From an uncultured Candidatus Peregrinibacteria bacterium (GTDB lineage Bacteria; Patescibacteriota; Gracilibacteria; Peribacterales; Peribacteraceae), in the NCBI GenBank assembly GCA_913054215.1, contig CAJXJE010000001.1, forward strand, positions 1 to 27,841: DNA of 27,841 bases. The letters run 5' to 3'. Under the pieces are notes generated by a model. The model searched no databases, was not told the origin of the DNA, and saw only the letters and a list, made by a program, of their open reading frames with translations. How positions within the stretch are numbered: the stretch's first letter is position 1; each line of letters opens with the position of its first letter. The translations under genes and the position numbers were made by a program. Positions 7,422 to 16,937 of the stretch are shown here, in pieces.

Positions 7422-7826
7422 ATGTCACAGCCACACCCGATTCAAAGTGATGCATTAATGTTTATCACAACAAATATCAAAAACAAACATCCATTATTCA
7501 AAAATAATGCATATGCACGAGAGGCAACAGAGATGATGTATCGAATTCAAGAGCAGCCAGATCATTGTCACTTTCTTCTATTCCTTGATGAACATGGATT
7601 CATTTCAAAAATCATGAACAGGTATAAAATGGGAGTGAGCCATAGTATCGGTATCGGATCTATTTGGCAGCCAAGATTCCATCTTCGATTACCAGAGAAT
7701 GCTGCGGCAGTACTGCATTATATTCATAGAAACCCCGTGAAGGCTGGAATAGTGGATAATCCTGAAGATTATCCATGGTCTTCCGCATCGGGAAAATGGG
7801 ATATAGTCGATTTGAATGTCCTATAA
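7422..7826 (+). mobile_element. Y1 HUH transposase (IS200/IS605 TnpA or RAYT type), possibly internally deleted
   Basis: PDHCH (HUH), WQPRF, YIHRNPVKAG (catalytic Tyr), PEDYPWSS. The segment before HUH looks about ten residues short and lacks the usual hydrophobic strand ending in MP. Confidence 0.85.
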
Positions 7827-7898: not shown

Positions 7899-9161
7899 AT
7901 GACCTCCATTCTTATCAAAGGCGGCTCCATCATCACGGAAAATGGTCCAGTTCGTGCGGATATCTTGAAAGTGGATGGTGTCATTACAAAGGTTGGTGTG
8001 GTGGAAGATACCGCAGATGAAGTCATACAAGCATTGGGGTACATCATCTTTCCAGGGCTCATTGATTGCCATGTACACTTTCGCGAACCCGGTTACGAAC
8101 ACAAGGCAACCATGAAGTCCGAGGCAGCGTCTGCACGAGCAGGAGGAGTGACGTGTGTCTGTGACATGCCGAATACCGATCCGCCAACGGTAACTATTAG
8201 CGCACTGAGTGACAAGGTACGTCGCGCATCAGAGGTTACCGATTGTGACATTCGATTTTTCTTTGGTGTCACATCAGCGATACATCTTGCGACACTCAAA
8301 GATTTGTGGGTATCAACATCCGATGAACTCATAGCGCTCAAAGCATATTGTTGCGGTGTAAAACTCTATTTCGACCACTCCACCGGAGATCAAAAAATCG
8401 AAGAAGAACTCATCGAAACAGTGTTTGAAGCATGTGCAGAACTTAATATTCCTATCATTGCACATTGTGAAGATCCACAGGTAAACACCGAAGCCGCAAA
8501 AGCAAACATCGATGAAGATGTCGCCGCACACTCCATCATCCGCCCTACAAAATCAGAAGCAAAATCTATCAAAAAAGCATTGGCTCTTGTTGCGCAATTC
8601 GGCACAGCGTTTCATGTTGCACATCTTTCTTCGAAGCGTGGGCTCGAGTTTGTTGCAAAAGCAAAAGAGGAAGGCTTACCGGTAACGTGCGAAGTGGCAC
8701 CGCATCATTTAGTACTTTCGACACTCGACTATAAAAAGCTTGGCACACTCTGCAAGATGAATCCCCCCGTACGTTCTGTCTCTGATAACGAAGCACTATG
8801 GCAGGGTATAGAAGATGGCACAATCGATTGCGTCGCAACCGATCACGCACCACATACACTCGAAGAAAAGCAAGCAGGCAAGCCATTAGATGCTCCTAGC
8901 GGTGTACCAGGGGTAGAGACGGCTCTATCCATATTACTCACGCGCTTGCAGCCAGAAACTATTCATAAACTCATGTTCGAGAACCCCAATCGCATATTTG
9001 ATCTTGGGAAACAGGGCCTTGTTGTCGGGTCCGATGCGGACATCGTGATAGTCGACCCAACCGTGAAGCGGCAGATTCATGCTGCTGACTTACATAGCAA
9101 ATGTGACTGGACTCCATTCGAAGGGAAAGAAGTGCGAGGGGAGGTAATTCGTGTCGTCTAA
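7899..9161 (+). CDS. pyrC: Dihydroorotase (type I, cyclic amidohydrolase family)
   Basis: DCHVHFREPG (HxH), DMPNT, HCED, HVAHLS, EVAPHHL, KMNPPVR, ATDHAPH, SGVPGVE; next to pyrB. ATG 7899. Confidence 0.9.
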   Translation: MTSILIKGGSIITENGPVRADILKVDGVITKVGVVEDTADEVIQALGYIIFPGLIDCHVHFREPGYEHKATMKSEAASARAGGVTCVCDMPNTDPPTVTISALSDKVRRASEVTDCDIRFFFGVTSAIHLATLKDLWVSTSDELIALKAYCCGVKLYFDHSTGDQKIEEELIETVFEACAELNIPIIAHCEDPQVNTEAAKANIDEDVAAHSIIRPTKSEAKSIKKALALVAQFGTAFHVAHLSSKRGLEFVAKAKEEGLPVTCEVAPHHLVLSTLDYKKLGTLCKMNPPVRSVSDNEALWQGIEDGTIDCVATDHAPHTLEEKQAGKPLDAPSGVPGVETALSILLTRLQPETIHKLMFENPNRIFDLGKQGLVVGSDADIVIVDPTVKRQIHAADLHSKCDWTPFEGKEVRGEVIRVV

Positions 9162-9943: not shown

Positions 9944-10770
9944 TAACGTTTACTGTATGTATGTGTGAGTAAGTGTGAAGCAGGGAGGATCTTCGTACCA
10001 TCATTGGTGTCTAGTACGATGTTCGTTAGCGTAAATTCTTTTACTGTTCCTGTGACATCGTTGATAGAAATCTCATCACCGATAGCAAGCTGCCTTTTAA
10101 GTTGCTGACAGGCCGTTGCATTATCAATCACCGTTCGTGCACCAAATGCAGCACCAAGACCGAGCATCAGAAGTCCCACAGAGACGATGGTCACAATCCC
10201 ATTAAGGATGTAGTGCAAATTAAATCCGAGTTGGTCGATAGCGGCGACAAAGACAAAAACAAGCACCACCATTTGTACGGTTTTACCGGCAAACTTCTTG
10301 TAGGTGATATCCATTCTACTTAGCGTTTGGAATGTGAGCATCTGCAAGAACCTCGCAAGGAGCATTCCAAAGATGATCATGAGTAGTGCTGCTATGACCT
10401 GTGGAATGTAGTTGGTGATAACGGCAAGCCCATCACTTACTTGTTGTAAGTGCAATGTGTCAGAAGCGACAATCAGTGTCAGTAGTATGATCAACCAAAA
10501 CACCAACCAGCCAAGTATGTCACTGATACTTTTATGGATACCAATGCTCTTGAGCATGCCGGTGAGAGGCGTCTTGGCAGAAAGCTTATCAATGGCAAAG
10601 AATCCAAGAACCCACAGTACTGCATGATGGATTAGTACGGCTGCCACCCATCCGACAAAAACGACGACTATAGCGAATAAAATCTCTGGCAAAAGCCCCC
10701 ATACCTTGTCGGATACAGAAACCACGCTATGGGAGAGCATCAGCTGGAAACGTTCAAATATTGCATTCAT
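9943..10770 (-). CDS. Small-conductance mechanosensitive channel family protein (MscS-like, extra N-terminal TM helices)
   Basis: Several TM helices, then LGAAFGAR..IDN and IGDEISINDVTGTVKEFTLTNIVL (MscS beta domain). Confidence 0.8.
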   Translation of the reverse strand: MNAIFERFQLMLSHSVVSVSDKVWGLLPEILFAIVVVFVGWVAAVLIHHAVLWVLGFFAIDKLSAKTPLTGMLKSIGIHKSISDILGWLVFWLIILLTLIVASDTLHLQQVSDGLAVITNYIPQVIAALLMIIFGMLLARFLQMLTFQTLSRMDITYKKFAGKTVQMVVLVFVFVAAIDQLGFNLHYILNGIVTIVSVGLLMLGLGAAFGARTVIDNATACQQLKRQLAIGDEISINDVTGTVKEFTLTNIVLDTNDGTKILPASHLLTHTYSKR

Positions 10771-10831
10771 TAAGCTAAATTATAGCAGAATTACCCTTAG
10801 AGCGCGATAGGCATTAATCTGACAAGCATTA

Positions 10832-10859
10832 TTGACATGCAGCGAAATATTCGTAGAAT
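10832..10859 (+). promoter_or_regulatory. Sigma70-type promoter TTGACA-16-TAGAAT
   Basis: Hexamers at 10832-10837 and 10854-10859; ATG 9 nt downstream. Confidence 0.7.
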
Positions 10860-10868
10860 GCTCGCGCT

Positions 10869-11276
10869 ATGAGTAGAAGAACCAGATTACGAGAGCTTGG
10901 CCAACAGCTTGAAGAAAAAAAAGTTGCCTTAACAGCAAACCATACTGATGGGCATCCTATCCTTGGAGAGAAGAGCCACGGAGATGTTGGTGAGATTGAA
11001 CAACGAACGAAACAATATGAATCAGACAGAGTGCTTGCAGCTATCGACAGAAAGCACGAAGGACGGTTTGGTAAGTGCGATGGTTGCGATGGCGACGTTC
11101 TTATATCCCGCCTTGTAGCTGATATCTGTGCAGATATGTGTATCGATTGTCGCAGAACACTCGAAGCAAGAGATGAATTTGCAGAGGAGGATGAAGTTGA
11201 GCTGGATTTTGGCGGTGCAGAGCGCCATGAGTATACAATGAGTACAACTGAAGCAAATAAATTACTCGGTCGATAA
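10869..11276 (+). CDS. TraR/DksA C4-type zinc-finger protein
   Basis: N-terminal helical region, then G-R-F-G-K-CDGC-x17-CIDC; acidic C-terminal tail. Confidence 0.8.
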   Translation: MSRRTRLRELGQQLEEKKVALTANHTDGHPILGEKSHGDVGEIEQRTKQYESDRVLAAIDRKHEGRFGKCDGCDGDVLISRLVADICADMCIDCRRTLEARDEFAEEDEVELDFGGAERHEYTMSTTEANKLLGR

Positions 11277-11278
11277 TT

Positions 11279-11548
11279 ATGGATGAAGCAGAGAAAACAG
11301 ATGGGCTACCAGTAAATACCATGAGGGCATTTGATACTGGCAGTACAACATTTGGGTCGGAAGGAGATGCTGCGTCCACTAGAGCAAATCAGTTTAATAA
11401 TGCTGCTCTAGCGGCCCGCGGCCCTCGTACCCCTCGCAGTGCTGAGCCCCTCGAGAAGTGTGCTCGATGCAGTGGCCCTATAGAAGCCGCGCGCACAGAG
11501 CTCAGATTTGCTATATGTATAGCCTGCGCGAGAGCAGCTGAGTCCTAA
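11279..11548 (+). CDS. Second, shorter TraR/DksA-like C4 zinc-finger protein
   Basis: CARC-x15-CIAC with I-E-A-A-R; SEGDAAS resembles the DxxDxA tip. Confidence 0.7.
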   Translation: MDEAEKTDGLPVNTMRAFDTGSTTFGSEGDAASTRANQFNNAALAARGPRTPRSAEPLEKCARCSGPIEAARTELRFAICIACARAAES

Positions 11549-11590
11549 ACTTCCACAATAATCGGAACCACCATAGGTTCGCGGTTTAGC
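11545..11590. repeat. Direct repeat copy A: displaced 3' end of rnj
   Basis: 43/46 identical to 12849-12894; the minus strand encodes LNREPMVVPIIVEV*. Confidence 0.95.
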
Positions 11591-12500
11591 CGCTATTGGT
11601 GTTGAGTGGTGCACGCGTTCGTGGTTCCATATACCTGAGACTACCTTCGAGAGGTTGCACCAAAGCAAGAAAAGATGAAGGTGTAAAATTACCGCCAAAT
11701 CTACATACAAGAGATGTCACGTCCTTTCTTTTTTGTATGATAGTTATTCCAGATTGTTTTAATATTTTAGTGACAAAAGGTAGATCTTTTTCAGACGTAT
11801 AGCCAAGCGCAAACTCTTTTGCCTTATTATAGACATCTATTTCTGAATAAATATAGCAGTCTGCGCTCCTTACGCTACTACAGTATTCTCTTACACCTTT
11901 TAGTGTAGCGGGGCCTTCTTCGCGATTAGATCGTACCAGTGCAGCATTCAGAGTTAAGGACAACTCTTCTACCCCAATTGTTAATGGAGAATTTGAAGAA
12001 ACTAACCCCATAGATTCAGCTTTTTTCAACGTGGTACGCATGGCTTTTATATGAGCAGTAACTTTGCCGGAAGGCTGCTTACTGCTAAATTTAAAATTAG
12101 GATTTTTGAGTATCGTAATAAATTTCCTTGCAGTAGTTAATTGCTTTTTGGCAGCATCTTTAATATCTTGCACCTTAATAAAATTATGAGTTGGCACTCC
12201 TTTTATTCGGCGTAAAACATATGAAATATCAGCTTGTGCTCTGTCTATAGAAGCCTCTTGATTTTTTTGAAGTAAGTCAGATGCTTCTTCAATAATCTTC
12301 TGCCAATCTCCGTGTTCCTTTGCGGTAATAAACTTCTTAGCATGAAGGTTATCTAACATGGCTTCGCAAATCTCCGCCTTTCTTTCTAGCTCATTTTTTC
12401 GAGGATCAAGTTCTTCAGGTGTGTTACTTGCATTTTCTTTTCGTTCCGCACCGGGCCTCTGTCGGAATTGTTCTCCCGGTCCTGAAGATTGTGGACACAT
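11586..12500 (-). CDS. Hypothetical protein (304 aa, basic, helical), islet cargo
   Basis: Long AT-rich ORF; GTG start overlaps the stop of the upstream ORF; its stop lies within the repeat. No motif recognised. Confidence 0.6.
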   Translation of the reverse strand: MCPQSSGPGEQFRQRPGAERKENASNTPEELDPRKNELERKAEICEAMLDNLHAKKFITAKEHGDWQKIIEEASDLLQKNQEASIDRAQADISYVLRRIKGVPTHNFIKVQDIKDAAKKQLTTARKFITILKNPNFKFSSKQPSGKVTAHIKAMRTTLKKAESMGLVSSNSPLTIGVEELSLTLNAALVRSNREEGPATLKGVREYCSSVRSADCYIYSEIDVYNKAKEFALGYTSEKDLPFVTKILKQSGITIIQKRKDVTSLVCRFGGNFTPSSFLALVQPLEGSLRYMEPRTRAPLNTNSG

Positions 12501-12778
12501 TAGATTTCATCAAAAGAAGGTAAAACCTCATTGCGCCTATCTTCTTCCTCTGCCCGCATGTTTCCTTCCCGTTTTAGTGTATGAATGAGCTCATCTATTG
12601 TTGCCAAACTTTCTGCGAGAGCCTCGTGCTGTTTTGCAATGCTGACTTTTAATACATCAACAATTTGTATTTTTTCAGCTTCGCTTAATTGTTCGGCTAC
12701 TTCTACGAGATGATCTGAGTAATCACTCTCGAGAAAGGTACATTTTTGAACAAATACGATGAAGGTTTTTGTGTCCAT
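12500..12778 (-). CDS. Hypothetical protein (92 aa, acidic helical), islet cargo
   Basis: ATG 12778 (MDTKTFIVFVQKC...). The longer ORF-track start overlaps rnj and is unlikely. Confidence 0.6.
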   Translation of the reverse strand: MDTKTFIVFVQKCTFLESDYSDHLVEVAEQLSEAEKIQIVDVLKVSIAKQHEALAESLATIDELIHTLKREGNMRAEEEDRRNEVLPSFDEI

Positions 12779-12848
12779 ATATGCAAAAGATAATCTTAGT
12801 ATTGTACCAGAATTAGGCACTAAGAACAATATCTCTTGCGTTATATGG

Positions 12849-12894
12849 CTAAACTTCCACAATAATCGGAACCACCATCGGTTCGCGATTGAGC
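12849..12894. repeat. Direct repeat copy B: current 3' end of rnj
   Basis: See copy A. Confidence 0.95.
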
Positions 12895-14726
12895 TTACGA
12901 TCAAAGTATCGATACAGCGCACTATTCACAGCACGCTTGAGAGCTTTGCGGTCGTTATCACCACGGTCGAGTGCATCGATGTATGCCTTCTTGGCTCGTT
13001 GCACAACCTCTTTGGTAATCACTTCTTCTTCGGATCCATAGATCAATCCTCGGCTGAGGACATCGGGGTCTCCGACAAGTCGCTTACTATCTTTGTAGAC
13101 TTTCAAGACGACAACAACGCTGCCCCCTTTACTCATGATCTGACGGTCACGAATGACACGCTGACCTTCGCCAGCACCACCACCCTTACCATCGATAATA
13201 ATATCCTGTACTTCGATTTTGCTCTTACTTTTGCGAGCGCTACCATTGGCATCAAACTCGAGGATCTCTCCGTTTTTGAGCAGATGAATCTGGTTATCGG
13301 GATATCCAATCTTCTTTGCAAGTTCTGCGTGGGCATAGCGCATAGAAGGTTCCCCATGTTCGGGGATAATATGCTTCGCTTTAACCAAACGGTGCATCAG
13401 CAAAATGTCTTCAGCTTTTCCGTGTCCGGTAACGTGAAGAGCGAGCTCTGCGTTCGTCTTTACGATGGCACCTTGCATACTCAAGTTATTGATCACCTTT
13501 GCAACAGCACGTTCGTTTCCGATAATCGGATTGGAGCTGAGGATAATCGTGTCGCCTTTCTTCACACCAATTTGTCGGTGTGTACCAAGGCCGATACGTG
13601 CAAGTCCTGCCATCTCTTCTCCTTGGCTTCCTGTGGTCACAATAATCACCTGGTTATCAGGGAGTTTATCCATGCCGGGGCTGACTTTGCGGATCATGCC
13701 GCGTGGTGCTTTGATGTACCCGAGGTTCTGAGCAATTTCGATATTGGTCACCATACTGCGACCAGAAACAAACACCTTGCGGTTATATTTTTTCGCATGT
13801 TCTACCACCTGTTGAATACGATTGAGCAGTGAGCTAAATGTCGAAACAATCACGCGTCCTTCTGCATCACGAATCAACTTGTTTAATGTGTCAGAAATTT
13901 CTGCTTCACTTTTACTGTGTCCAGGCTTAGCAGCGTTTGTCGAGTCCGCGATAATCGCGAGCACTCCATCTTCGCCAAGCTTTGCCAGACGTTGAAAGTC
14001 TGCAGGCTCTTCACTCATCGGTGTGAGGTCGAACTTAAAGTCCCCCGTATGAACGAGTGTTCCGTATGGGGTATGCACTGCGATCGCTGCGGAGTCGGGA
14101 ATAGAGTGTGTTACTTTTAAAAATTCCACCTCTACTTTTCCAATGCGAATTTTTTGACCATATTTAGCATTATGTAGTCTGCATTTGCTGGTCAGCTTTT
14201 CTTCATCCAATCGCTTTTTAACGAATGCCATCGTCAGCTCGGTTCCGTAACATGGTGGGTAGTGCAATCCTGCCATAAGGTGCTGTACAGCACCGATGTG
14301 GTCTAAGTGCCCATGCGTAAAGAGCACGGCTTTTATGCGGTTCTCTTTTCCGCGAAGGGAAGAAAGATCCGGTATCAAATAGTCGATACCAAGCATGTCT
14401 TCGTCCGGAAACTGTAGACCCAAGTCTATAATATAAATGTCTTGGTCTACTTCTATAACGAAGCAGTTACGGCCTACTTGTTCAAATCCACCGAGTGGAT
14501 AGACACGAAGTTTGCCTCCTGCAAAATGAGCAGGCTTTTGCGCGGGGCGCGGTGCAGGTTTATGTGAGTCCTGCCTCACAGGCTTTCTCGCGGTATTGCG
14601 AAAGGGAGGCCTGTTCCCTTGGTGCGGCTTTCGTTGTCCGCCTTGATTTGTGTTGCCCCGCTGGGGCTGTTGTTTCTTCCGCTCGTCACCCTTATTGGAT
14701 CCGAGCCATTCTCCTACGGTTTTCAT
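12849..14726 (-). CDS. rnj: Ribonuclease J
   Basis: PLGGFEQVGRN, THGHLDHIG, HSIPD, HTGDFKFD, DSTNA, TGSQGE, HVTGHG and the REPMVVPII C-terminus; ~70-aa low-complexity N-terminal extension. Confidence 0.96.
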   Translation of the reverse strand: MKTVGEWLGSNKGDERKKQQPQRGNTNQGGQRKPHQGNRPPFRNTARKPVRQDSHKPAPRPAQKPAHFAGGKLRVYPLGGFEQVGRNCFVIEVDQDIYIIDLGLQFPDEDMLGIDYLIPDLSSLRGKENRIKAVLFTHGHLDHIGAVQHLMAGLHYPPCYGTELTMAFVKKRLDEEKLTSKCRLHNAKYGQKIRIGKVEVEFLKVTHSIPDSAAIAVHTPYGTLVHTGDFKFDLTPMSEEPADFQRLAKLGEDGVLAIIADSTNAAKPGHSKSEAEISDTLNKLIRDAEGRVIVSTFSSLLNRIQQVVEHAKKYNRKVFVSGRSMVTNIEIAQNLGYIKAPRGMIRKVSPGMDKLPDNQVIIVTTGSQGEEMAGLARIGLGTHRQIGVKKGDTIILSSNPIIGNERAVAKVINNLSMQGAIVKTNAELALHVTGHGKAEDILLMHRLVKAKHIIPEHGEPSMRYAHAELAKKIGYPDNQIHLLKNGEILEFDANGSARKSKSKIEVQDIIIDGKGGGAGEGQRVIRDRQIMSKGGSVVVVLKVYKDSKRLVGDPDVLSRGLIYGSEEEVITKEVVQRAKKAYIDALDRGDNDRKALKRAVNSALYRYFDRKLNREPMVVPIIVEV

Positions 14727-14760
14727 TAGTTATGAATTATGTATGAATTAATATGCCACC

Positions 14761-14789
14761 ATCATAGTCCACTCGAGGGTGTATTGCAA
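14761..14789 (-). promoter_or_regulatory. Probable rnj promoter TTGCAA-17-TATGAT
   Basis: Reverse complement of ttgcaa (14784-14789) and atcata (14761-14766). Confidence 0.5.
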
Positions 14790-15011
14790 GCAGTGCTTTG
14801 CAAAGGCATCGACTTTTTGGCTTAGGTTAAACGAATTTTTATCAGGAAAATTTGTTTTAGTACGGTGTTGTATTGTAATTTTCATTCACAATGCTCAGAA
14901 ATCACTCCAAAACAATCCAGCTTCATCATAGTGAGATACTACACCCTGAACATCATCTGTACTCGCTCCAGCTTGCTGAAACTCGCTTCCATCGGTAGCC
15001 TATAACACTGT

Positions 15012-16937
15012 ATGGAGATAACTGTGCAAACAGGCCACACCAGACCAAAGCGGGGGACCACACTCATCGCGGATAGTTTTGTGAGCAGCAGTGGGGAGGA
15101 TGTCGCTCTACTTATACAAGTAACCGGATCTCCGGCAGATGCAAAGACGCTCGAAAAAGAGTGTAAAACTGTTATCAAACACGCGCTTCTCGAAACAGAT
15201 GGTGATGCAGCCCAGCGATTAGATGGATCACTCAAAGAACTCAACGGACTCTTTAAAGGTCTCACCTTCTCTCAATCGGTTGAGGAAGTACATGCGATTT
15301 TAGGAATCATCGATAAGACCGGAATCTTACACGTGTCCCACGCAGGTCGTGCAGAGGCATATGTCGTTCGTGGCAGTGGAGCAAGTCAAATTACGGAGTA
15401 TACCCGTGGCAAACCCACTCCAGCATTTGTGCATATAGCGAGTGGTGTACTCGAGCAGCGTGATGTCATTATTCTATCTACTCAGAGACTCCTACGCACC
15501 GTAACACCTGCACAACTTGCACAACTTGCCCAGCGTGGAGAGCATCTTCTCGATGAGCTCATTACCGAACTCGAATCCGAAAAAGAACAGGCAGCCATTG
15601 GACTCTTCCATGTATCGGGCCGCGGCAAGGCGTCGTCTGGCAAACCCGTAAAGTCCGCACCATCGCGTCGCCGAAGGCGCAAGAGCGGAGCACTCTCGGC
15701 AGTACTTGCTTCTGCTGCTGATGTTACTGCACGTGTCAGCGACTATGTTCCATCAGGAATACCAGGGCGCATACAAGAGTTGGTATCGGGCTTTATGTCA
15801 GATCTCTCCGATCCAAAGAAAAAACGCAGAGCACACTTACTACTTCTTGCGGGGACAGTTGCGGCGTTCCTTATCGTATGGGCAGTAGTGAACTTGTCTA
15901 CAGGAAGCCAAAGCCGAGCATCTCGTGCAGAGCTTGAAGAGCGACTCGATGAAGTGAGCCAGCTCATTCGTACTGCAGAAAATCGCAGACTCTCCGGTGA
16001 GACCGATAGTGCAAACGCGATATTAGAGCAGGCCGAGCAGCGCGCGAAACAAGTGATGGATAACGAAAGTAATTTATTCCGTGCGCAAGCTTTGGATCTT
16101 TTGGAACGCATTCGCACCAAGCGTGAAGAGATTAATAACATCGTGCGGCTCTCTCCTCGGGTCGTCGTCAGCCTTGCCACAAAGAATAAAGACATTGATG
16201 CGCTTGGATTCATCGGACTTCCAGACGGTGAGTTTATCGCTTACGACAGACAAGATCTCTACCGTGTACTTCTAAACTCTGTCGAAGATGCCGACCGATT
16301 GGTTGAAGATGAGTTGATCTTAGATGCTGATGATTTCCCGCGGTACCAGACAACGGTATTCCAAACGACGGACAATAGTATTATCGAACTCATCAACGGT
16401 CAGCCGACATCCATGAAGACTGCAGACCCTGCAGGTTGGATAAAAGGTACCGACATCGAAACGTACTTGCGGTTCCTCTACGTACTCTCTCCAGAGAACA
16501 ATCAGATCTACAAATATGAGCGACTCGCAAACAGGTACACCGCTCCTGCGGAGTACAATGTGAACGGAGATCTCGAAGGATCTATCGACATGGCTATTGA
16601 TGGAAACATTTTCATCCTGAAAGAGGGGGGAGAAGTGATGCGGCTCCTGCGTGGCGAGGTGAAGCCATTTACCATCCGTCACCTTCCAGAGGAGGCTCTC
16701 AAAAATGCGACCAAACTCTACAAAGTATTCGATGGTCACTTGTACTTCCTCGACCCATCCGCTGGACGCGTCGTCGTTGCGACTCCGGGTGGAGGCGCGG
16801 GTGAAGGGTCGTATGTACGGCAGTACATTCTTGAGGGAGATCAGATCGGTGACCTCAAAGATATCTACGTTGATGAAGAGGAGACCAAGATGTATCTGAT
16901 TGATGATAAGAGAATCCATGTAGTTGATCTTCGATGA
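15012..16937 (+). CDS. Membrane protein: degenerate PP2C-like N-terminal domain, single TM, coiled coil, beta-propeller-like C-terminus
   Basis: HVSHAGRAEAYVVRG and DVIILSTQRL align with PP2C HxGDSRAY and LxSDGL but lack the Asp residues; TM LLLLAGTVAAFLIVWAVV; repeated propeller-like blades (LYVL, IFIL, LYFLD, MYLID). Confidence 0.65.
   Translation: MEITVQTGHTRPKRGTTLIADSFVSSSGEDVALLIQVTGSPADAKTLEKECKTVIKHALLETDGDAAQRLDGSLKELNGLFKGLTFSQSVEEVHAILGIIDKTGILHVSHAGRAEAYVVRGSGASQITEYTRGKPTPAFVHIASGVLEQRDVIILSTQRLLRTVTPAQLAQLAQRGEHLLDELITELESEKEQAAIGLFHVSGRGKASSGKPVKSAPSRRRRRKSGALSAVLASAADVTARVSDYVPSGIPGRIQELVSGFMSDLSDPKKKRRAHLLLLAGTVAAFLIVWAVVNLSTGSQSRASRAELEERLDEVSQLIRTAENRRLSGETDSANAILEQAEQRAKQVMDNESNLFRAQALDLLERIRTKREEINNIVRLSPRVVVSLATKNKDIDALGFIGLPDGEFIAYDRQDLYRVLLNSVEDADRLVEDELILDADDFPRYQTTVFQTTDNSIIELINGQPTSMKTADPAGWIKGTDIETYLRFLYVLSPENNQIYKYERLANRYTAPAEYNVNGDLEGSIDMAIDGNIFILKEGGEVMRLLRGEVKPFTIRHLPEEALKNATKLYKVFDGHLYFLDPSAGRVVVATPGGGAGEGSYVRQYILEGDQIGDLKDIYVDEEETKMYLIDDKRIHVVDLR

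Follow-up and report, generated by a model that had tools for sequence, protein, structure and literature searches.

A putative integrase-less cassette at the 3′ end of rnj in marine Candidatus Peribacteria, at a candidate recurrent insertion point

Pseudo-staphylococcal cassette chromosome (pseudo-SCC) elements sit at the 3′ end of rlmH (orfX) in staphylococci; they carry no recombinase of their own, are bounded by direct repeats, leave the gene intact and rely on Ccr serine recombinases and a 15-nt core. In Escherichia coli, the prophage e14, and likewise phage 21, lies inside the 3′ coding end of the housekeeping gene icd and supplies a surrogate end. The K-12 prophage, which is 15 kb long and has its own integrase and excisionase, begins 165 nt before the icd end; the displaced copy, the icdC pseudogene, is found at the opposite end of the prophage, and of the 12 differences between the two 165-nt copies, 11 are at third codon positions. 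Cis-mobilizable elements (CIMEs) have lost their integration and transfer genes, yet attL and attR are retained where the target gene ends on its 3′ side (PMC5704250). Here we describe a 1304-bp islet at the 3′ end of rnj, the gene for RNase J, in a stretch of 27,841 nucleotides from an uncultured Candidatus Peregrinibacteria bacterium (assembly GCA_913054215.1, contig CAJXJE010000001.1, positions 1 to 27,841; hereafter the window). The genome of the window, G000, is a bin of 0.81 Mb in 136 contigs, 78.5% complete, from a marine population of Candidatus Peribacteria, members of the candidate phyla radiation (CPR). An earlier note on this DNA had described an integrase-less islet with a synonymously recoded replacement tail.

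A repeat search showed that the window carries a 46-nt direct repeat, copy A and copy B, identical at 43 of 46 positions and spaced 1304 nt apart (Table 1); the chance expectation for such a pair within the window is ∼4e-14. Both copies translate on the minus strand to LNREPMVVPIIVEV followed by a stop. The 30-nt core of the repeat, from the Met codon ATG through TAG, is the same in both copies without a single difference. All three mismatches (11575/12879, 11584/12888 and 11587/12891) are synonymous third-position changes confined to the 16-nt arm upstream of the core, that is, to 6 of the 16 third positions (P = 0.036). The homology stops precisely at the rnj stop codon. Copy B provides the working end of rnj, which is whole and encodes all its Pfam domains, and the insertion point lies after Met-617, nine codons ahead of the stop. 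The stop of copy A (CTA, 11545–11547) overlaps the TAA (11546–11548) of a convergent 89-aa gene with weak matches to DksA/TraR zinc fingers (PHROG 54, 1.6e-5; TIGR02419, 0.003, below the cut-off). The repeat, its synonymous mismatches, the overlapping stops and the intactness of rnj are all as the earlier note had described them.

We surveyed the locus by exact-sequence look-up of the 89-aa neighbour gene and by comparing contigs of sequencing runs with the window. The occupied locus was present in seven assemblies from ENA and the Joint Genome Institute (JGI) (L150, L152, L153, L154, L156, L157 and L158), and both repeat junctions were bridged by independent assemblies from different studies. 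The empty site that the earlier note had predicted, with rnj directly against the 89-aa gene, came to light in at least four runs: X7, X6 and those represented by Logan contigs L151 (35.6 kb) and L155. A 3565-bp contig of run X7 links position 11544 to 12849 with zero mismatches; in run X6, which holds occupied and empty forms together, one contig links 11575 to 12880 and another lies within the cassette. Presence of the cassette is polymorphic in nature, and its loss runs through the repeats. Single-nucleotide polymorphisms (SNPs) in the flank, at 8722 and 11240, are shuffled between occupied and empty haplotypes, and therefore the population recombines.

We then searched 200 genomes of the family with a degenerate 27-nt pattern (the last eight codons and the stop, one mismatch allowed). 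Two or three tandem tails on one contig were found in 7 of the 72 genomes with any match, G000 included, and a metagenome locus, L112, holds a tail pair as well (Table 1). Every extra tail starts directly after the same Met codon (ATG, GTG or a remnant of it), and its homology ends at the stop. Across eight pairs of tails, 32 of 33 differences are at third positions, with one amino-acid change in 64 codons; neutrality would give this pattern with P = 1e-14, or P = 3e-5 if the distal copy alone drifted. These comparisons indicate that the rnj end is probably a recurrent insertion point, used at the same codon in about eight cases from at least six genera.

In L112, the proximal, working tail is unlike the distal one in 8 of 8 codons, and the distal copy is genus-like and lies 21 nt before the next open reading frame (ORF), where relative G003 has its working tail. 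The distal copy of G145 is likewise genus-like. Judged from these alignments, recoded surrogate tails do occur at the same rnj spot in L112, G145, G170 and G190. The recoded replacement tail of the earlier note thus stands for these four relatives and falls for G000, where the replaced 30-nt core is identical. G151 and G203 share their insert: the spacer core (∼85 nt) is ∼96% identical while the third positions of rnj diverge by 21%, suggesting either conservation of an RNA structure or recent exchange, and since the two species split the distal tail has changed at third positions alone. Their spacer includes a terminator-like hairpin nested in a longer stem. Among 80 GTDB rnj loci no second tail was seen at the DNA level, in a search that is blind to recoded tails. 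The exact 30-nt core had zero matches in metagenome, genome and viral collections, an uninformative result because those collections leave out near-identical records. As a separate observation, G009 has a displaced rnj end (L022, G009:C38:3787-3863) on another contig than its rnj locus L023 (G009:C11), after a gene for a LamG-domain protein of 978 aa; the displaced end is 67 nt long and is followed by ∼75 nt of homologous flank, at ∼87–90% identity and with mostly synonymous differences, and may represent a second strain or a large island.

The empty sites bear on which of the two arms is native. Every empty site seen has the copy-B bases at 12888 and 12891, and on the simplest reading the 16-nt arm of copy B would be host sequence, the variant arm of copy A having come with the cassette. 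The stop of ORF1, the longer of the two cassette ORFs, lies in the copy A arm, so that this arm would arrive together with ORF1. For the mismatched part, this reverses the assignment in the earlier note, which took copy A as the original end and copy B as element-borne. The base at 11575/12879, just 5′ of the shared Met codon, is the sole variable site across 4 kb in four runs, and it has three alleles (A, C and T) over the two copies and the empty sites (Table 1). A crossover within the core of a type I locus gives an empty site of type C, a crossover within the 8 identical nucleotides between 11575 and 11584 of the same locus gives type A, and a type II locus gives type T. The empty sites accordingly resemble what deletion would leave of the two occupied types, and type A in particular is hard to account for otherwise. 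All empty sites seen may then be secondary, in which case they would not prove which arm is native. The variability of 11575/12879 itself might stem from conversion or repair where the crossover took place, or the position may be a mutational hot spot. We also tried to trace the copy A arm to a sister lineage through L112, which matches it at 15 of 16 positions; this failed, as such a match could be chance at an overall identity of ∼80%.

The cassette is foreign in composition. Its unique 1258 nt between the repeats have a GC content of 38.7%, against a genome mean of 45.6% (standard deviation 2.2), which places them in the lowest 0.9% of windows of equal size. They hold two orphan ORFs, ORF2 (92 aa) and ORF1 (304 aa), the start of the latter overlapping the stop of the former (TAATG). 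This agrees with the AT-rich insert and orphan ORFs of the earlier note. The stop of ORF1 (TAA, 11588–11586) depends on the T at 11587 that is specific to copy A. A promoter-like site ahead of ORF2, read by eye and below the threshold of a consensus scan, may drive both genes.

An exhaustive HMMER search of 1.84 billion representatives returned one match for ORF1, a 99%-identical fragment of 151 aa that derives from this locus in a JGI sample; the sole match for ORF2 was a 99% copy from the same population. Neither this search nor a word-seeded one gave relatives of either protein outside their own population. Pfam, NCBIfam, PADLOC and PHROGs gave no meaningful match to either, IMG/VR held no relative of ORF1, and PDB held nothing below E = 0.04 by sequence for the cassette proteins. 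The structure model of ORF1 is poor (predicted local distance difference test score, pLDDT, 50); that of ORF2 (pLDDT 80) has three helices and found nothing in PDB better than E = 1.7. The structure Atlas gave no usable lead for the cassette proteins, prediction of an ORF1–ORF2 complex scored 0.01, and among the RNA runs none was listed as carrying the cassette. The cargo would be a self-promoted operon of a small acidic protein followed by a larger basic one; as a low-confidence guess, it might serve as an accessory conflict module, either toxin–antitoxin-like or for phage defence. Type II toxin–antitoxin systems are resembled in layout only (a 92-aa acidic protein encoded ahead of a 304-aa basic one, the stop of the first gene overlapping the start of the second), with no family matches.

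The islet is integrase-less, as the earlier note had it: neither cassette ORF matches a recombinase in Pfam, NCBIfam, PADLOC or PHROGs. G000, at its level of completeness, contains zero serine recombinases and a single tyrosine recombinase, on contig C29, of a kind found in 7 of 7 genus relatives. None of the tyrosine recombinases of the genus adjoins rnj where placement can be judged; in G007, the only near-complete relative, the nearest one is >100 kb from rnj on the same contig. A transposon with target-site duplication is unsupported, there being no terminal inverted repeats and no transposase at the cassette, and the repeat copies differ at synonymous sites alone in G000 and almost only at third positions in relatives. 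A test for a diversity-generating retroelement found no reverse transcriptase and an Avd match of E = 0.066, and the repeat differences are synonymous. A GAACC-N6-GGTTC palindrome was considered as a recombinase core and dropped, having no conservation in relatives. Rfam had no match in window positions 10500–15200. Other direct repeats in G000 (C5, C56 and C45) proved to be intergenic or low-complexity repeats instead of gene-end duplications. On contig C91 (2725–2872), a 39-nt perfect direct repeat with copies 109 nt apart comprises a TATAAT promoter and the first ∼20 nt of a tRNA gene, so that the intact gene is preceded by a truncated 5′ piece of the tRNA.

The inserts of relatives differ in content from the cassette. 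The spacers of G102, G145, G170 and, in degenerate form, L112 end in a GC-rich hairpin, GTAG-C(C/T)CCGC-loop-GCGG(G/A)GC-GAAGG..GGTG. This hairpin belongs to a family resembling repetitive extragenic palindromes (REPs) in several Peribacteraceae genera (L139–L148; G102, G145 and G170), with GTAG, a 7-bp GC stem, GAAGG and a G-run to GGTG; further copies are dispersed in those genomes, often as tandem units of ∼96 nt. The family was not found in G000, so the inserted content differs by lineage while the boundary is common. Rfam returned nothing for the relatives' spacers except a tRNA. One dispersed copy, L142 (G102:C13:1500-2100, about 236–345), is flanked by a perfect 16-nt duplication made up of the first 13 nt of a tRNA-Gln gene and 3 nt upstream. 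In the window, an ORF at 7422–7826 has a weak Pfam Y1_Tnp match (E = 4.5e-4, 19.7 bits, below the cut-off), and its flanking hairpins (GCGGGG...CCCCGC) differ in type from those of the rnj spacers.

Taken together, we put at about even the chance that the islet is an integrase-less cassette that brings a surrogate gene end to a spot in rnj where insertion recurs, that entered by a crossover in the core and that is lost through its repeats. The incoming 1304-bp unit would have carried its own 46-nt mimic of the rnj end and entered rnj just after the Met codon that lies nine codons ahead of the stop, separating it from the eight final codons. One reciprocal crossover inside the shared 30 nt would then yield an intact RNase J ending in copy B and, at the same time, a displaced copy A beside the dksA-like gene. 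The cassette has no recombinase, and therefore entry would require an enzyme acting in trans or host recombination on short homology; a crossover between the two repeats would later restore the single rnj end. Several observations weigh against this account. The paired tails of relatives are too little alike for a classical crossover at identical cores, and the relatives' inserts are mostly 46–106 nt long with the dispersed hairpin repeat and no genes, so that the common factor may be the site and not one element family. No helper element or integrase was found in the same genome, the 200 family genomes or IMG/VR, the degenerate rnj-tail pattern had zero matches in IMG/VR viral contigs, no circular form was found, and the joint of an excised circle was not reported in the run contigs examined. 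Should all the empty sites seen have arisen by secondary deletion, copy A could carry the native arm, as the earlier note assigned it. Finally, 3 of 3 cargo SNPs between two strains are non-synonymous, and ORF1 and ORF2 may be decaying.

Part of this evidence would fit one-sided homologous capture after DNA uptake (homology-facilitated illegitimate recombination) from a donor with the cassette downstream of its rnj end, which we consider unlikely, though a serious contender. Recombination within rnj on the left and an illegitimate joint 46 nt before the recipient stop on the right would make copy A the native end of the recipient and all empty sites seen later inter-repeat deletions. Such capture would need no recombinase, and none is present; a truncating junction could account for the ORF1 stop, which is two codons beyond the repeat boundary; at least one of the empty-site types has the look of a secondary deletion; the junctions of relatives lie at 1–4-nt microhomologies (RTG) at the hairpin foot; and the shuffled flank SNPs show a recombining population. 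However, no empty site carries the copy-A bases at 11584/11587, a random joint leaves the shared codon boundary across genera unexplained, and homology that runs exactly to the stop is more in keeping with a selected surrogate end. In a different proposal, which we rate as improbable, the common factor is the site: the rnj end after Met-617 would be a fragile or specifically cut spot at which repair captures frame-restoring DNA, the G000 cassette being one such capture, or duplicates tail and terminator hairpin through microhomology. One boundary does serve inserts as unrelated as a REP-like hairpin, a 46-nt perfect hairpin, a terminator and the 1.26-kb cassette; G102 has two 95-nt units that are 97–100% alike; and the rnj site GCGAACCNATGGTG is similar to GCGAAGG..TGGTG, the right end of the hairpin repeat. 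Yet duplication in situ predicts neutral decay of the distal copy, against both the 32 of 33 synonymous differences and the changes in G151 and G203 since their split, and neither a nuclease nor a motif was identified.

The islet could instead be an autonomous element, with ORF1 an unrecognised recombinase or with the single Xer-like recombinase of the host exploited as by integrative mobile elements exploiting Xer (IMEX). ORF1 does end inside the repeat arm, where integrases often sit, and the genome has one tyrosine recombinase only. We nevertheless hold this very improbable: searches up to E = 10 linked ORF1 to no recombinase family, no solved structure matches it meaningfully, its model is of the poor quality given above, GC skew shows no replication-terminus switch at the site, and the 30-nt core, itself coding sequence, lacks the two 11-nt arms of a dif-like site. 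An assembly artefact or chimera, which the earlier note had allowed for and a fragmented metagenome bin might invite, has a negligible chance, as the seven independent assemblies with the same structure and bridged junctions exclude it.

A wider form of the cassette reading can be offered tentatively, and we think it rather doubtful that all of it holds. The codon boundary after Met-617 would be a dedicated, reversible insertion point across Peribacteraceae, where modules bring a surrogate rnj end (hairpins in most genera, a two-gene cassette here) and need neither an element-encoded recombinase nor much identity; both ends would be under selection, each working part of the time. The near-exclusive synonymous change in untranslated copies suggests that such reversible insertion is frequent or else that the second copy is under a constraint not yet recognised. 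A boundary at one codon across genera, combined with synonymous change in untranslated copies, is harder to explain by known mechanisms. Descriptions of mobile elements in CPR bacteria are very few, and gene movement in reduced genomes is poorly known; the present case is clean and polymorphic in the wild, with the full site, the empty site and deletion products all in public data. Annotators should not dismiss as noise the short "pseudo-tails" that follow rnj in these genomes.

The surroundings of the rnj end are a variable spot. The gene order in the genus is rnj, an MscS-like gene and FGase, and the gap after rnj varies in length and content (Table 1). Two further observations concern other parts of the window. 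Fourteen SNPs in 130 nt at 7909–8035, inside a dihydroorotase gene with almost identical surroundings, separate the window from JGI contig L014 and look like a short recombination tract. L154 (JGI 3300026253) has a 2-nt deletion at 10655–10656, giving an MscS-like gene product of 234 aa instead of 275 aa.

Table 1. Features of the rnj locus in the window, and tandem tails, site alleles and post-rnj gaps in compared loci
Feature	Location	Strand	Remarks
135-aa DksA-like gene	10869..11276	+	conserved neighbour in closer relatives
89-aa DksA/TraR-like zinc-finger gene	11279..11548	+	convergent with rnj; adjoins rnj directly in empty sites
Repeat copy A, displaced untranslated rnj end	11545..11590	-	repeat comparison
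Copy A core	11545-11574	-	
Copy A arm	11575-11590	-	three synonymous differences
ORF1, 304 aa, orphan	11586..12500	-	basic, pI 9.4
ORF2, 92 aa, orphan	12500..12778	-	acidic, pI 4.5; predicted all-helical
Promoter-like site of cassette	12801..12829	-	TTGTTC (12829-12824), 17 nt, TGGTACAAT, extended -10 (TACAAT 12806-12801)
Repeat copy B, working last 15 codons and stop of rnj	12849..12894	-	repeat comparison
Copy B 30-nt core	12849-12878	-	
Copy B 16-nt arm	12879-12894	-	three variant bases
rnj (RNase J), 625 aa, intact	12849..14726	-	Pfam RNase_J_b_CASP 5.7e-45, RNase_J_C 1.1e-23, Lactamase_B
Tandem tails, G000			spacing 1304
Tandem tails, G102 (L134)	G102:C11:192226-192442		spacings 95 and 95
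Tandem tails, G145 (L138)	G145:C25		spacing 95
Tandem tails, G170 (L133)	G170:C6		spacing 89
Tandem tails, G190 (L135)	G190:C4		spacing 73
Tandem tails, G151 (L137)	G151:C21		spacing 131
Tandem tails, G203 (L136)	G203:C26		spacing 133
Tandem tails, metagenome locus	L112:3405-3516		spacing 85; rnj 90% protein identity to that of G000
Occupied type I: window, L152, L153, L154, L158	11575/12879		copy A/copy B = A/C
Occupied type II: L150, JGI pair L157 with L015	11575/12879		copy A/copy B = T/T
Occupied type II, copy A alone seen: L156	11575/12879		T/not covered
Occupied, copy B alone seen: X2, X5	11575/12879		not covered/T
Empty: X7	12879		C
Empty: X6	12879		A
Empty: L151, L155	12879		T
Gap after rnj, G007			42 nt; none
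Gap after rnj, G002			90 nt; none
Gap after rnj, G001 and G006			~570 nt; one DksA-like gene
Gap after rnj, G005			~1 kb; HAD hydrolase
Gap after rnj, G004			2 kb; orphan 472-aa ORF and DksA-like gene
Gap after rnj, metagenome locus L112			1.7 kb; 391-aa ORF and DksA-like gene

We know of no integrative and conjugative element (ICE), integrative and mobilizable element (IME) or integrase that targets rnj, and our literature search found no paper naming this gene as an attachment site. REPs and their associated Y1 transposases (RAYT) offer a likeness to the short inserts of relatives, which carry a dispersed GC-rich hairpin beginning with GTAG, as REPs do. To our knowledge, REP insertion does not duplicate 14–46 nt of its target, and the comparison breaks down for G000, which lacks that hairpin family and whose insert holds genes. 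The pseudo-SCC elements have their Ccr recombinases and 15-nt core, of which no counterpart was seen at the rnj islet. The e14 prophage is the closest known case: the islet likewise lies inside the 3′ coding end of a housekeeping gene supplied with a surrogate end, and the third-position bias between the two icd copies is the same signature as in the rnj tails. Compared feature by feature, the islet has flanking 3′-end repeats, an intact gene and an empty site equal to one copy; unlike e14, it is 1.3 kb long and encodes neither integrase nor excisionase, and its replaced 30 nt are identical and not recoded. The best fit is with the CIMEs. By analogy, the islet would work like an integrase-less element of that kind; it shares the CIME architecture of streptococcal ICE and IME sites, in a host that differs in being a CPR bacterium of about 1 Mb.

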